Assembly (NCBI RefSeq): GCF_044324875.1
Contig: NZ_CP172185.1
Strand: one strand, 5' to 3'
DNA from: Escherichia coli
Lineage (GTDB): Bacteria > Pseudomonadota > Gammaproteobacteria > Enterobacterales > Enterobacteriaceae
Length of the DNA: 64,000 nt
The notes beneath the pieces are model-generated. The model saw nothing but the letters and a program-made list of their open reading frames with translations, had not been told where the DNA came from and ran no database searches. Within the stretch, counting starts at the first letter, position 1, and every line of letters begins with the position of its first letter. Made by a program: the position numbers and the translations under genes. Positions 1-28,920 of this stretch are shown piece after piece.

Positions 1-150
1 CTTCATAGTCTCGCCCACGGTCAGGGTTATAAGCGTCGTTAATCGCCTGCTGAATATTGCCAATGGTGTCGTCGATAATATCGGCCTGGGCCGGAACGGT
101 GGACAGCGTGAGCAGGGTGAATAAAAGAAATAGCGGAAAGCGTTTCATTA
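1..150 (-). CDS. yjdP: N-terminal part of a small secreted protein; gene runs off the window start
   Basis: Reverse-strand ATG at 148-150 followed by a typical signal peptide (MKRFPLFLLFTLLTLSTVPAQA...). Resembles K-12 YjdP from memory; not listed in the ORF track because it is truncated by the window edge. Confidence 0.45.
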
Positions 151-216
151 GCCAACCTCAAAAAGAAACTCTATCCACATTAGTCATTACTCATCCATGC
201 AAGTAGTGGATGAATC

Positions 217-534
217 TCAATTTCTCCGCTGCTCTATTGCCGTAATCGCCTCCACGCGTTGTTGATGACGACCGCCTTCGTACTGCGCGCCCAGCCACGC
301 ATCCACAATCATTTTTGCCAGTTCGAGGCCAACCACTCGTGAACCAAAAGCCAGTGCAACTTCACTGGCGTAATGCGGATAATCAGTACGCTCTGACGAC
401 CTGGTTTCTTTATCAATCCCCTCACTCATTGACCATGAATAAAAGGCTGGCACAGCAACGCAGAATCCTGCGGTGCCAGCGACATGACCGCCCATTGCTC
501 CGGTACGTTTTTTAATAAAAAACACCGGTTGCAT
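217..534 (-). pseudogene. rpiB: Ribose-5-phosphate isomerase B remnant (internal deletion, divergent N-terminus)
   Basis: ORF 217..534 carries two RpiB-like blocks (SSERTDYPHYAS..VAL and AFGSRVVGLELAKMIVDAWLGAQYEGGRHQQRVEAITAIEQRRN) but lacks the central part of the 149-aa protein, and the N-terminal ~40 residues do not match RpiB. Confidence 0.5.
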
Positions 535-774
535 TGATTAATTGTGCTCAGTATTTGCCGAAGTACAATATATATAATAAATATATAAAACACCTCATAT
601 TATTTACAGAGATAATAAATTCGCGTACTTTTCCCTCTTCAGCACAAATGCCTAATAAAATGGCTCGCTCCGCTCACACTTCCACTTATTAAAGTCGCAA
701 ATTCCCAATTATGATAACGCCAGCTTTAAATGACGTATTTTGCATGGATTACATATTTACGACACAAATGATAA

Positions 775-2772
775 ATGGAGATTTATATGAATAACTCTCG
801 GTTATTCCGTTTGAGCAGGATTGTTATTGCGTTAACTGCCGCCAGCGGCATGATGGTAAATACCGCTTACGCAACAGATGAAGCGAAAGCCGCCACTCAA
901 TATACCCAACAGGTTAATCAGAATTACGCCAAATCATTACCGTTTAGCGATCGTCAGGATTTTGACGATGCCCAGCGTGGATTTATCGCCCCGCTGCTGG
1001 ATGAAGGTATTCTGCGTGATGCGAACGGTAAAGTTTACTACCGCGCAGACGATTACAAATTTGATATTAATGCCGCTGCGCCGGAAACCGTAAACCCCAG
1101 CCTGTGGCGTCAGTCGCAAATCAACGGTATTTCTGGCCTGTTCAAAGTCACCGATAAAATGTATCAGGTGCGCGGCCAGGATATCTCTAACATTACGTTC
1201 GTTGAGGGCGAGAAAGGCATTATTGTTATCGACCCGCTGGTGACGCCGCCTGCCGCAAAAGCCGCACTTGATCTTTACTTCCAGCATCGTCCGCAAAAAC
1301 CGATTGTTGCTGTGATTTACACCCACAGCCACGCCGACCATTATGGCGGTGTGAAAGGCATTATCTCTGAAGCGGATGTTAAATCCGGCAAAGTGCAGGT
1401 GATCGCTCCGGCAGGCTTTATGGACGAAGCCATCAGCGAAAACGTGCTGGCGGGTAACATCATGAGCCGCCGTGCGCTCTACTCTTACGGTCTGTTACTG
1501 CCGCACAACGCGCAAGGCAACGTGGGCAACGGCCTGGGCGTGACGCTGGCAACCGGCGACCCGAGCATTATTGCACCGACTAAAACTATCGTCAGAACTG
1601 GCGAGAAGATGATTATCGACGGCCTGGAATTTGACTTCCTGATGACTCCGGGTAGCGAAGCGCCAGCCGAAATGCACTTCTATATTCCGGCCCTGAAAGC
1701 CCTGTGTACCGCCGAGAACGCCACGCATACCCTGCACAACTTCTACACTCTGCGCGGCGCGAAAACCCGCGATACCAGCAAGTGGACCGAGTACCTGAAC
1801 GAAACGCTGGATATGTGGGGTAACGACGCGGAAGTACTGTTTATGCCGCACACCTGGCCGGTCTGGGGCAATAAGCATATCAATGATTATATTGGTAAAT
1901 ATCGCGATACTATCAAGTACATTCACGACCAGACCCTGCACCTGGCGAACCAGGGCTACACCATGAATGAAATCGGCGACATGATTAAGCTGCCGCCTGC
2001 GCTTGCCAATAACTGGGCCAGCCGCGGCTATTACGGTTCTGTCAGCCACAACGCCCGCGCGGTGTATAACTTCTATCTTGGCTATTACGACGGTAACCCG
2101 GCTAACCTACATCCGTATGGTCAGGTGGAGATGGGTAAACGTTACGTGAAAGCGCTGGGCGGTTCTGCCCGCGTCATCAACCTGGCGCAAGAAGCGAACA
2201 AGCAAGGTGATTACCGTTGGTCGGCAGAACTGCTGAAACAGGTGATTGCCGCCAACCCTGGTGACCAGGTCGCGAAGAATCTGCAAGCGAATAACTTTGA
2301 ACAGCTGGGCTATCAGGCCGAGTCCGCCACCTGGCGCGGTTTCTACCTGACCGGCGCGAAAGAGCTGCGCGAAGGGGTGCATAAATTCAACCACGGCACC
2401 ACCGGTTCCCCGGACACCCTTCGCGGAATGTCGGTCGAAATGCTGTTCGACTTTATGTCCGTTCGCCTCGATAGTGCGAAAGCCGCGGGTAAAAATATCA
2501 GCCTGAACTTCAATATGAGCAACGGCGATAACCTCAACCTGACGCTGAACGATAGCGTGCTTAACTACCGTAAAACGCTGCAACCGCAAGCCGACGCCTC
2601 TTTCTACATCAGCCGTGAAGATCTGCATGCCGTGCTGACCGGACAAGTCAAAATAGTGGATCTGGTAAAAGCGAAGAAAGCCAAAATTATTGGCAATGGC
2701 GCGAAACTGGAAGAAATTATTGCCTGTCTGGATAATTTCGATTTGTGGGTGAATATCGTAACCCCAAATTAA
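775..2772 (+). CDS. yjcS: Type I alkyl/aryl sulfatase-like metallo-beta-lactamase-fold protein with signal peptide
   Basis: 665-aa ORF; N-terminal signal peptide; HSHADH metal-binding motif ([10 protein letters not shown]). True start may be the ATG at 787 (MNNSRLF...). Confidence 0.88.
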
Positions 2773-8017: not shown

Positions 8018-10165
8018 ATGAAAAAAGTCGTCACGGTTTGCCCCTATTGCGCATCAGGTTGCAAAATCAACCTGGTCGTCGATAACGGCAAAATCGTCCG
8101 GGCGGAGGCAGCGCAGGGGAAAACCAACCAGGGTACCCTGTGTCTGAAGGGTTATTATGGCTGGGATTTCATTAACGATACCCAGATCCTGACCCCGCGC
8201 CTGAAAACCCCCATGATCCGTCGCCAGCGTGGCGGCAAACTCGAACCTGTTTCCTGGGATGAGGCACTGAATTACGTTGCCGAGCGCCTGAGCGCCATCA
8301 AAGAGAAGTACGGTCCGGATGCCATCCAGACGACCGGCTCCTCGCGTGGTACGGGTAACGAAACCAACTATGTAATGCAAAAATTTGCGCGCGCCGTTAT
8401 TGGTACCAATAACGTTGACTGCTGCGCTCGTGTCTGACACGGCCCATCGGTTGCAGGTCTGCACCAATCGGTCGGTAATGGCGCAATGAGCAATGCTATT
8501 AACGAAATTGATAATACCGATTTAGTGTTCGTTTTCGGGTACAACCCGGCGGATTCCCACCCAATCGTGGCGAATCACGTAATTAACGCTAAACGTAACG
8601 GGGCGAAAATTATCGTCTGCGATCCGCGCAAAATTGAAACCGCGCGCATTGCGGACATGCACATTGCACTGAAAAACGGCTCGAACATCGCGCTGTTGAA
8701 TGCGATGGGCCATGTCATTATTGAAGAAAATCTGTACGACAAAGCGTTCGTCGCTTCCCGCACAGAAGGCTTTGAAGAGTATCGTAAAATCGTTGAAGGC
8801 TACACGCCGGAGTCGGTTGAAGATATCACCGGCGTCAGCGCCAGTGAGATTCGTCAGGCGGCGCGGATGTATGCCCAGGCGAAAAGCGCCGCCATCCTGT
8901 GGGGCATGGGTGTAACCCAGTTCTACCAGGGCGTGGAAACCGTGCGTTCTCTGACCAGCCTCGCGATGCTGACTGGTAACCTCGGTAAGCCGCATGCGGG
9001 TGTAAACCCGGTTCGTGGTCAGAACAACGTGCAGGGTGCCTGCGATATGGGCGCGCTGCCGGATACGTATCCGGGATACCAGTACGTGAAAGATCCGGCT
9101 AACCGCGAGAAATTCGCCAAAGCCTGGGGCGTGGAAAGCCTGCCAGCGCATACCGGCTATCGCATCAGCGAGCTGCCGCACCGCGCAGCGCATGGCGAAG
9201 TGCGTGCCGCGTACATTATGGGCGAAGATCCGCTGCAAACTGACGCGGAGCTGTCGGCAGTACGTAAAGCCTTTGAAGATCTGGAACTGGTTATCGTTCA
9301 GGACATCTTTATGACCAAAACCGCGTCGGCGGCGGATGTTATTTTACCGTCAACGTCGTGGGGCGAGCATGAAGGCGTGTTTACTGCGGCTGACCGTGGT
9401 TTCCAGCGTTTCTTCAAAGCAGTTGAACCGAAATGGGATCTGAAAACGGACTGGCAAATCATCAGTGAAATTGCCACTCGTATGGGTTATCCGATGCACT
9501 ACAACAACACCCAGGAGATCTGGGATGAGTTGCGTCATCTGTGCCCGGATTTCTACGGTGCGACTTACGAAAAAATGGGCGAACTGGGCTTCATTCAGTG
9601 GCCTTGCCGCGATACTTCAGATGCCGATCAGGGGACTTCTTATCTGTTTAAAGAGAAGTTTGATACCCCGAACGGTCTGGCGCAGTTCTTCACCTGCGAC
9701 TGGGTAGCGCCAATCGACAAACTCACCGACGAGTATCCGATGGTACTGTCAACGGTGCGTGAAGTTGGTCACTACTCTTGCCGTTCGATGACCGGTAACT
9801 GTGCGGCACTGGCGGCGCTGGCTGATGAACCTGGCTACGCACAAATCAATACCGAAGACGCCAAACGTCTGGGTATTGAAGATGAGGCATTGGTTTGGGT
9901 GCACTCGCGTAAAGGCAAAATTATCACCCGTGCGCAGGTCAGCGATCGTCCGAACAAAGGGGCGATTTACATGACCTACCAGTGGTGGATTGGTGCCTGT
10001 AACGAGCTGGTTACCGAAAACTTAAGCCCGATTACGAAAACGCCGGAATACAAATACTGCGCCGTGCGCGTCGAGCCGATCGCCGATCAGCGCGCCGCCG
10101 AGCAGTACGTGATTGACGAGTACAACAAGTTGAAAACTCGCCTGCGCGAAGCGGCACTGGCGTAA
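8018..10165 (+). CDS. fdhF: Formate dehydrogenase H, selenocysteine-containing molybdoenzyme; UGA at 8435-8437 decoded as Sec
   Basis: ORFs 8018..8437 and 8486..10165 are in the same frame, separated only by an in-frame TGA; N-terminal Fe-S cysteine cluster (CPYCASGCK...CLKG); the joined product is the right length for FdhF. Confidence 0.92.
8438..8480 (+). other. SECIS stem-loop directing selenocysteine insertion at the fdhF UGA
   Basis: Sequence immediately 3' of the UGA (cacggcccatcggttgcaggtctgcaccaatcggtcggtaatggc) can form the hairpin expected for the fdhF SECIS. Confidence 0.75.
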
Positions 10166-28774: not shown

Positions 28775-28915
28775 AAAGCATCAACACCAACCGGAACCTC
28801 CACCACGTGCTCGAATGAGGTGTGTTGACGTCGGGGGAAACCCTCCTGTGTACCAGCGGGATAGAGAGAAAGACAAAGACCGGAAAACAAACTAAAGCGC
28901 CCTTGTGGCGCTTTA
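28775..28915 (+). ncRNA. ryjA: Candidate small RNA convergent with soxR (RyjA-like)
   Basis: From memory, K-12 has the sRNA RyjA in the soxR-yjcD intergenic region. TACAAT -10-like element near 28766; the transcript would end at the shared hairpin. Strand and ends are uncertain. Confidence 0.3.
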
Positions 28916-28920
28916 GTTTT
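28891..28920. terminator. Bidirectional terminator hairpin overlapping the soxR stop codon
   Basis: Perfect 11-bp inverted repeat actaaagcgcc-cttgt-ggcgctttagt with T runs on both strands. Confidence 0.7.

Follow-up and report, generated by a model that had tools for sequence, protein, structure and literature searches.

In Escherichia coli K-12, the interval between yjcS and yjdP is occupied by the D-allose regulon, with alsK-alsE-alsC-alsA-alsB-alsR and rpiB following yjcS in that order (alsR is the rpiR gene in K-12 naming). In the stretch of E. coli DNA analysed here (64,000 nucleotides, referred to as the window), the same two flanking genes enclose a 105-codon open reading frame (ORF; 217..534, minus strand, 318 nt) that RefSeq lists as an "RpiB/LacA/LacB family sugar-phosphate isomerase" (WP_001183282.1 and variants). 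What is this ORF, how did the locus arrive at its present state, and is that state peculiar to the strain? We find that window 149-640 is, very probably, a scar left when an als-positive Escherichia ancestor lost its D-allose regulon long ago. The anatomy, breakpoints, and population frequency of the scar can be read directly from the alignments and genome searches.

To the left lies the 5' part of yjdP (1..148, minus strand), i.e., its first 49 codons, with the gene running on past the window start; K-12 YjdP matches 148..2 at 100% identity in tblastn, and yjdP is annotated at the same position in VCSW7, O104:H4, and 042. The right-hand anchor is an intact yjcS, encoding an alkyl sulfatase (787..2772, plus strand; 98.3% tblastn identity to K-12 YjcS over 661 aa, and annotated in relatives), at a distance of 252 nt from the ORF. 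An earlier note on this DNA had placed the ORF between a yjdP start and yjcS, had correctly located rpiR and alsBACEK between rpiB and yjcS in K-12, and had claimed that the als and rpiR genes are absent here. All of this agrees with our results: with all K-12 Als proteins as tblastn queries, no homologue of alsR, alsB, alsA, alsC, alsE, or alsK was found in the 64-kb window, where only weak matches to ABC-ATPase paralogues appeared, and the window thus holds no D-allose regulon locus.

Window segments 1-354, 345-424, 433-484, and 563-1000 match four separate K-12 segments in colinear order. The first ends in a 3' remnant of rpiB, here called piece B (217..354, minus strand), which comprises the stop codon and RpiB residues ~107-149 and adjoins yjdP exactly as in als-positive strains. 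Window 1-354 is 99.2% identical to the yjdP-rpiB 3' end of K-12. Piece A (355..424, minus strand), located between the two deletion junctions, corresponds to RpiB residues ~29-53 and is unusually diverged, with ~90% identity to K-12 rpiB. At the protein level, BLASTP against K-12 RpiB (E = 2e-35) aligns ORF residues 38-62 with RpiB 29-53 and ORF residues 63-105 with RpiB 107-149, with a 53-residue gap where RpiB 54-106 is missing and no RpiB counterpart for ORF residues 1-37. The PDB RpiB chains 1nn4 and 2vvr match the ORF in two separate stretches, and instead of a complete domain of ~138 positions, Pfam LacAB_rpiB (PF02502) is matched only at model positions 102-138 (E = 6e-9) and 27-49 (E = 1.7). 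The original description of RpiB-like blocks without the middle of the protein is borne out by all three comparisons. The "unrelated N-terminus" mentioned there does lack an RpiB counterpart, but its origin has to be corrected, since the first 37 codons are the antisense of the last alsK codons, the alsK terminator hairpin, and an 82-nt stretch.

The remnant of the last alsK codons and stop (CCATGA; 425..445, plus strand) is recognized in alignments to the alsK 3' ends of K-12, E. whittamii, and L009, a divergent genome named E. coli. It is followed by the alsK terminator-like hairpin (GCTGGCAC...GTGCCAGC; 446..480, plus strand), which is ~79% identical to its K-12 counterpart, with a paired change that keeps the stem. 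Window 433-484 matches K-12 DNA downstream of alsK in blastn, and the predicted RNA fold of 430-575 has an energy of -45.7 kcal/mol (z = -4.1). A scan of 1-900 gave one terminator-like match, at 350-369 (minus strand) inside the remnant, which is within chance expectation. To the right of the 82-nt stretch, all states of the locus realign in an AT-rich segment (AATATATATAATAAA...; 567..640), the sequence of which is nevertheless linked to locus state, as scar and als-positive B1 strains differ at 16 positions of 582-636.

Mapping against K-12 placed two deletion junctions. The motif AGCCAG at 349..354 is present at both ends of the 159 nt that are missing relative to K-12, and marks an in-frame internal rpiB deletion with loss of RpiB ~54-106. 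At 419..424, CCCTCA can be read as either rpiB- or alsK-derived in alignments to the K-12, E. whittamii, and L009 alsK 3' ends; here a ~6.55-kb deletion extends from rpiB codon ~29 via alsR-alsB-alsA-alsC-alsE to the last ~7 alsK codons, the exact base of the junction being ambiguous because the progenitor sequence is missing. As judged from the junctions, two short-homology (illegitimate) deletions would have created the scar from an als-positive locus. One would have taken the rpiB-alsR promoter region, alsR, alsB, alsA, alsC, alsE, and most of alsK, and the other the 159 nt between the AGCCAG repeats; an accidental ATG in the 82-nt stretch would then open the 105-codon frame. With respect to the order of the two deletions, metagenome contig L081, accession OGGX01003690.1, could pass for an intermediate, having the large deletion and the 77-nt stretch together with an intact rpiB middle. 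Its sequence resembles K-12 as far as the start of piece A and the scar from there on, a mosaic that would also be expected if two co-occurring strains had been assembled into one chimeric contig, and it was therefore set aside. An allele of this type is present in no complete genome.

The scar-specific stretch at 485..566 measures 82 nt, corresponding to 77 nt extra compared with K-12. It supplies the ATG of the ORF (532-534, minus strand) and contains a 44-nt imperfect palindrome at 493-536. The stretch is absent from K-12, E. whittamii, L009, O157, MOD1-EC7003, and E1V33, and distant blastn searches of E. coli genomes show it to be single-copy and confined to scar carriers. Exact 22-mer matching against metagenomes recovered 18 contigs, 17 with ordinary scar alleles and one with a variant. 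No source was found in the Escherichia, Salmonella, Kluyvera, Citrobacter, and Pluralibacter loci fetched via YjcS. A REP, BIME, MITE, or IS footprint was considered and rejected because the stretch occurs in a single place per genome and belongs to no Rfam family (no match in window 1-1000 at E <= 1). Deletion from the als-positive sequences examined does not account for these 77-82 nt, and the simple deletion scar first proposed has to be amended to two junctions (159 nt and ~6.55 kb) plus this additional stretch.

A contiguous scar with the same breakpoints is present in 1568-1569 of 5426 complete E. coli genomes (~29%), with uninterrupted alignments to window 1-900, 340-600, and 425-575 at 97-100% identity; for O104:H4, O111:H8, VCSW7, and 042, base-by-base comparison confirmed identical breakpoints, and hence a shared als-deletion allele. 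Window 425-575 is found in only ~1575 genomes (1568 of them at full length), and no more than 6 of 4979 have two copies of the rpiB piece. The scar sequence occurs in no als-positive E. coli genome, the existence of such strains being one of the observations by which the earlier note could have been overturned. At least 80% of the als region is kept in 3368 genomes. The rpiB piece is wholly missing in another ~447 genomes of O157:H7 type, and in the two of these that were examined, O157:H7 NE92 and an ETEC isolate, the site holds the aldolase, kinase, and response-regulator genes of the OI167 island. Phylogroups were assigned for named strains only among the 1569 carriers; O104:H4 and O111:H8 are, like the als-positive strain SE11, strains that we take to be B1. 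PCN033 and enteroaggregative (EAEC) 042, also carriers, are placed in phylogroup D in the part of the literature consulted (PMC4578781). The scar allele is therefore a common one in E. coli that has spread between phylogroups or been retained in several of them. The "strain-specific deletion with pseudogenisation of rpiB" of the earlier note holds as far as the deletion and the pseudogene are concerned, but not as to strain specificity.

The als operon is complete, and in the same place and orientation, in E. whittamii (L008) and in L009, and als is ancestral at the yjdP-yjcS site within Escherichia. On a longer time scale als was itself an earlier insertion, because it is lacking between phnP-(yjdP) and yjcS in more distant relatives: in Salmonella enterica subsp. 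arizonae and two Kluyvera genomes these genes are adjacent, with neither als nor rpiB.

The age and origin of the scar allele are less straightforward. Piece A differs from functional alleles at 6-9 of 75 nt, compared with 1-3 among functional alleles of E. coli and E. whittamii, and the two scar haplotypes differ from each other at 4 of 75 nt (~5%). From every E. coli als-positive allele, the divergence is ~10% in piece A and ~21% in the terminator remnant, but only 0-1 of 132 nt in piece B. Because piece A and the terminator are far more diverged than piece B, more must have happened than one recent deletion from a K-12-like operon. The pattern is most clearly seen on comparison of O104:H4 (scar) with SE11 (als-positive). 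On the left, the two share 1557 nt at 100% identity, right to the edge of the 159-nt junction. Beyond it, piece A has 9 mismatches in 80 nt and window 582-636 has 16, but the ~4.9 kb that follow have only 9 in total (Fisher tests, p = 1e-4 for piece A and p = 1e-26 for 582-636 versus those ~4.9 kb). The scar is thus linked to a block of ~280 nt (~355-640) with ~10-29% divergence, inside otherwise identical B1 flanks. This suggests an old or imported allele, and is the only, mild, novelty of the locus. Recombination would have homogenised the flanks of the scar up to the deletion junctions, and the sharply bounded block offers a small example of such homogenisation around an old indel.

One explanation of the block, which concerns the history of the feature and not its identity, is that the scar originated well before the phylogroups split or in another, divergent Escherichia lineage, and entered D, B1, and other groups by homologous recombination or persistence, with the ~280 nt inseparable from the indels keeping the old divergence. 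We consider this a serious possibility, although falling somewhat short of an even chance. It would account for the sharp stop of the O104:H4/SE11 identity at the 159-nt junction and for the ~5% difference between scar haplotypes in piece A. It would also explain why the distance from E. coli als-positive alleles is as large in piece A and the terminator as that seen for other Escherichia species in piece B; none of the E. coli als-positive alleles falls below 97% identity to K-12. However, no donor with a matching als operon or 77-nt stretch was present among the Escherichia genomes recovered in a scan of one genome per GTDB species, nor among the 18 metagenome contigs. The counts are also small (7-9 differences in 75-80 nt), and faster decay of neutral remnants combined with repeated conversion of piece B could mimic the picture. 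More tentatively, and with lower probability, the yjdP-yjcS site can be viewed as an ancient multi-state polymorphism (als, scar, and OI167-type island), where the scar predates the phylogroup split or was introgressed, and was long maintained, perhaps through niche-dependent selection on allose use, with the divergence of the flanks being removed by recombination.

Whatever its history, the scar of an als-positive locus is predicted to leave only a non-functional ORF, devoid of catalytic core and promoter. The catalytic and substrate-binding residues of E. coli RpiB, known from structural work as Asp9, His10, Cys66, Thr68, His99, and Asn100, are all absent because RpiB 1-28 and 54-106 lack counterparts in the ORF, which retains only the C-terminal Arg133/Arg137 region. 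Piece A shows 3-4 replacements in 25 residues, in a segment where K-12, B2, YJ1, and E. whittamii RpiB are identical and L009 differs at two positions, so the ORF does not display the sequence constraint of functional RpiB alleles. Could the deletion instead have produced a new functional gene, e.g., for a small protein built on the C-terminal helices of RpiB? The frame is open in the window, VCSW7, O104:H4, O111:H8, 042, and most other carriers, and the C-terminal 43 residues are those of RpiB in most alleles. The two haplotypes differ by 3 synonymous and 4 non-synonymous changes in the ORF, a count without power for selection. At ~7 substitutions in 318 nt, chance alone would be expected to leave the frame open, and the identity of piece B is attributable to recombination with als-positive alleles because the DNA is 100% identical, non-coding flank included. 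Moreover, one allele, annotated as a pseudogene, is interrupted by an internal stop, another has lost its start in a secondary deletion, and 042 carries extra replacements in the C-terminal part at positions otherwise invariant in functional RpiB. No sigma-70-like promoter was found in a scan of window 1-900, visual inspection upstream of the ATG reveals no obvious Shine-Dalgarno sequence, and the remnant is probably not expressed. We therefore regard a new gene as very improbable.

Even less credible is the reverse scenario, i.e., that the als-less state is ancestral, rpiB-als was inserted in K-12-type strains, and the ORF is an intact gene of its own. The als- and rpiB-free loci of S. enterica subsp. 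arizonae and the two Kluyvera genomes might seem to fit, as might the RefSeq listing of the ORF as an ordinary CDS in many genomes, but the outgroup intergenic regions share nothing with window 149-750, and some alleles carry stops or additional deletions. The ORF joins two non-adjacent rpiB segments in frame, with the alsK stop region and terminator behind them, and because all of these keep K-12 order and orientation, only deletion from an als-positive locus explains the ORF. The check for an intact unrelated gene, which the earlier note had named as a possible refutation, returned fragments of rpiB and remains of the alsK flank. An assembly or sequencing artefact can be dismissed, as 1568 independently finished genomes and 17 metagenome contigs show this arrangement gap-free.

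The expected outcome of the deletions is loss of D-allose transport and catabolism and of RpiB, with ribose-5-phosphate isomerase activity then provided by RpiA, which is encoded outside the window. The window strain shares with ~29% of finished E. coli genomes a predicted inability to use D-allose, a rare sugar that is nowadays promoted as a sweetener. A published prediction credits only ~1/3 of Escherichia strain representatives with allose use (PMC9393557). The RefSeq name given to a dead 105-codon remnant represents a systematic annotation error, by which automated metabolic reconstructions can wrongly credit scar strains with RpiB. Beyond such bookkeeping the scar matters little, and it opens no new question.

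Compared with the K-12 D-allose regulon (rpiB/alsI, alsR/rpiR, and alsBACEK), the window has fragments at the same site that match rpiB and the alsK 3' flank in the same order and orientation, but it lacks all transport, regulatory, and catabolic genes, and rpiB is cut down to residues ~29-53 and 107-149. The 6-nt direct repeat AGCCAG and the CCCTCA overlap resemble the junctions of RecA-independent short-homology deletions that leave pseudogene remnants, a mechanism that is here read from junction sequences only. The als-negative locus of EAEC 042 is the same allele, colinear with window 1-1000 at 98.0% identity without gaps and with the same 318-nt ORF, as is that of the porcine ExPEC strain PCN033, which is 100% identical over window 340-600; the window strain belongs to another lineage than these two (best complete-genome match 98.6% over 25 kb). 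The absence of als from 042 and PCN033 is published, in the passages concerned as "complete absence" of rpiB, rpiR, and alsBACEK (PMC2808357, PMC4578781), and 042 is reported not to use D-allose in Biolog plates (PMC2808357). The als deletion at this locus is thus real, ordinary, and already described, although the same passages make no mention of rpiB and alsK remnants, two junctions, or a 77-nt stretch (PMC2808357, PMC4578781). In O157:H7, the OI167 island, with lmvKR and mannose-utilisation genes, replaces als between yjcS and yjdP (PMC10128022). The O157-type loci, fetched from ~2.5 kb upstream of yjcS, showed no rpiB remnant, and aldolase, kinase, and response-regulator genes adjoin yjcS, whereas the window carries no replacement genes. 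The island is another alternative occupant of the site, and all states regain homology at window position ~567, upstream of yjcS.

The window is Escherichia coli chromosome, and an earlier note had placed a reading frame between the start of yjdP and yjcS near its left end. The first 49 YjdP residues are encoded at 148..2 (-) with 100% identity, yjcS starts at 787 (+) as right neighbour, and between them a chimeric ORF of 105 codons occupies 217..534 (-). In BLASTP, K-12 RpiB (149 aa) matches this ORF with E = 2e-35 in two blocks, RpiB 29–53 to ORF residues 38–62 (piece A, window 355–424) and RpiB 107–149 to ORF residues 63–105 (piece B, window 217–354), while RpiB 54–106 is missing, in agreement with the N- and C-terminal RpiB blocks and absent middle described in that note. 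Only model positions 27–49 and 102–138 of 138 are covered in Pfam LacAB_rpiB, and the match to the solved RpiB structures 1nn4 and 2vvr is likewise split into two separate stretches.

The MG1655 gene order (yjcS, alsK, alsE, alsC, alsA, alsB, alsR, rpiB, yjdP, phnP) confirms that K-12 carries rpiR (alsR) and alsBACEK between rpiB and yjcS; with the K-12 Als proteins as queries, no homologue was found elsewhere in the 64-kb window. The window aligns to the K-12 region as four colinear pieces: 1–354 with the yjdP start, the intergenic region and the last 138 nt of rpiB (99.2% identity), 345–424 with rpiB codons ~29–53 (90%), 433–484 with the last two alsK codons and the downstream hairpin (79%), and 563–1000 with the alsK–yjcS intergenic region and yjcS (94.8%). 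The first and second pieces are offset by 159 nt, or 53 codons without a change of frame; AGCCAG stands on both sides of the missing segment in K-12, and one copy is left at 349–354. The second junction, at ~419–424, marks the loss of ~6.55 kb of K-12 sequence, comprising the initial 83 nt of rpiB, the rpiB–alsR control region, alsR, alsB, alsA, alsC, alsE and almost the whole of alsK. When the alsK 3' ends of E. whittamii and of L009, a divergent genome that carries the E. coli name, are aligned here, window 419–445 is readable as the final ~7 alsK codons, and CCCTCA at the junction could originate from either the rpiB or the alsK side. Because of these alignments, the N-terminus that had been called unrelated can be accounted for: ORF residues 1–37 indeed have no RpiB counterpart, but they are the antisense reading of the alsK tail, of its terminator-like hairpin (446–480), and of an extra stretch (485–566, 77 nt beyond K-12) that supplies the ATG at 532–534 (-). 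Outside the window, the phnP–yjdP intergenic region is ~111 nt longer in K-12 than in strain VCSW7 (L001 2786), the excess possibly being a REP-type element.

Several observations argue that the remnant ORF is a pseudogene, as had been proposed. RpiB residues 1–28 and 54–106, which according to the established structure of E. coli RpiB include Asp9, His10, Cys66, Thr68, His99 and Asn100, are absent; the promoter region of rpiB has been lost with the deletion, and a promoter scan of window 1–900 found no sigma-70-like site. Piece A carries 3–4 amino-acid replacements among its 25 residues, in a span where RpiB is identical among K-12, a B2 strain, YJ1 and E. whittamii, and only L009 differs, at two residues. 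In MFDS1019527 an internal stop interrupts the frame, and the allele is marked as a pseudogene; the BS-04 allele (NZ_CP172819.1, 2283–2770) has lost the start region, with most of the hairpin and 77-nt stretch replaced or deleted; and in 042 residues are replaced within the C-terminal part, which is otherwise invariant. The BS-04 allele, annotated as a 99-aa CDS, also has a few bases inserted near the large junction, and may represent a secondary deletion or a sequencing error. That the ORF is still open in most carriers requires no selection, because the two haplotypes of the locus differ at just 7 sites within it (3 synonymous, 4 non-synonymous). RefSeq/PGAP enters the remnant as a regular CDS named "RpiB/LacA/LacB family sugar-phosphate isomerase" (WP_001183282.1, WP_001183287.1, WP_001183290.1) in the BLAST-table feature lists and in all inspected carrier records but one, the internal-stop allele. 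This annotation is misleading, and automated metabolic models could wrongly credit such strains with RpiB.

The deletion had been regarded as strain-specific, which does not hold. Among 5426 complete E. coli genomes, 1568 have a single site that aligns with at least 80% of window 1–900; the junction-spanning segments 340–600 and 425–575 occur in 1569 and 1568, respectively. The K-12 als region is at least 80% complete in 3368 genomes, and the rpiB piece is wholly absent from ~447; in the two of the latter that were inspected, O157:H7 NE92 and an isolate of ETEC, yjcS is adjoined by genes for an aldolase, a kinase and a response regulator, the OI167 island (PMC10128022). Since at most 6 genomes carry the rpiB piece twice, scar and operon are essentially exclusive. 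Scar carriers form two haplotype groups, ~475 genomes with 99% or more identity to the window and ~1098 with 97–98%. The latter includes O104:H4 2011C-3493 and O111:H8, which we take to be phylogroup B1, and the operon is intact in other presumed B1 strains, e.g., SE11. The former includes PCN033, assigned to phylogroup D (PMC4578781). The scar is therefore a frequent allele in more than one phylogroup. One carrier, E. coli 7CC (NZ_CM137006.1), has IS1A inserted within the equivalent of window 1–900.

E. whittamii and L009 carry the whole operon, identically placed and oriented, and the scar thus derives from an als-positive Escherichia ancestor. In Salmonella enterica subsp. arizonae phnP adjoins yjcS, and in two Kluyvera genomes phnP–yjdP does so, in each case without als, and the operon itself is therefore an earlier insertion at the site. 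The extra stretch at 485–566 (77–82 nt) contains a 44-nt imperfect palindrome in RNA folding; it is single-copy and absent from every als-positive sequence examined, and its source was not found. A metagenome contig (OGGX01003690.1, 2775–3506) combines the 6.55-kb deletion and the 77-nt stretch with an intact rpiB middle; lacking the 159-nt deletion, it encodes an ORF with RpiB 29–149 intact. Its pattern is mosaic, and none of the 5426 complete genomes has this form. The contig could be a true intermediate, a repaired allele or a chimeric assembly.

Piece B (132 nt) differs by 0–1 nt from functional E. coli alleles, whereas piece A (75 nt) differs by 6–9 nt (Fisher p = 0.004), the scar haplotypes being 4 nt apart in the latter. 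Scar-bearing O104:H4 and als-positive SE11 are 100% identical over 1557 nt on the left side up to the 159-nt junction, but piece A shows 9 mismatches in 80 nt (p = 1e-4); to the right, 16 differences fall within window 582–636 and only 9 in the next ~4.9 kb (p = 1e-26). Window ~567–640 exists in a distinct version in each locus state (als, scar, O157-type island, two other Escherichia species), and the versions converge after ~640. From these small numbers we infer that the scar may be an old allele or an import from a divergent lineage; recombination would have erased divergence wherever homology is contiguous, and ~280 nt inseparable from the indels would have kept it. As a separate observation, rpiB is mosaic between species, E. 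whittamii (L008 2791–3237) differing from E. coli by 2–3 nt in codons 29–53 and 11–14 nt in codons 107–149, with a protein 100% identical to K-12 RpiB. In a Pluralibacter MAG (L027 1–10000), phnP–yjdP is followed by a partial rpiB (85 aa, 88% identity) and then, as read by eye from translations, an IS1 InsB-like fragment, an autotransporter-looking 1478-aa ORF and, beside yjcS, ORFs for a sugar isomerase-like protein, an aldolase and a kinase, similar to those of the O157 island. Outside Escherichia too, the yjdP–yjcS site looks like a hot spot for replacement.

Elsewhere in the window, the Rfam matches at gathering threshold, SECIS_2 at 8430–8484 (+), placed in the fdhF region from the annotation of relatives, sraL at 28780–28920 (+) and naRNA4 at 61524–61594 (-), are ordinary E. 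coli backbone features, and there are no tRNA genes. Over its first 900 nt the window shares 99.8% identity with VCSW7, although across window 1–25000 the best of the 5426 complete genomes reaches only 98.6%; either the lineage of the source strain has no closely related finished genome in the collection, or the strain is a mosaic.

Strains without als have been described previously. EAEC 042 is reported to lack "rpiB, rpiR, alsBACE and K" and not to use D-allose in phenotype arrays (PMC2808357), and the alsBACEK regulon is reported missing from PCN033 (PMC4578781). The 042 locus is the same scar, colinear with window 1–1000 at 98.0% identity with zero gaps, and PCN033 is 100% identical to window 340–600. 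Also in 042, espX5 (L095 4800–6092), in a region syntenic with the window, is annotated as a pseudogene with an internal stop. Pan-Escherichia modelling predicts allose use in just 34% of strain representatives (PMC9393557). Absence of als and the allose-negative state are thus already published. The deletion scar is real, as the earlier note had recognised, but common and ordinary; details of its structure, the erroneous annotation and the divergent block with its sharp boundaries add little to these accounts.
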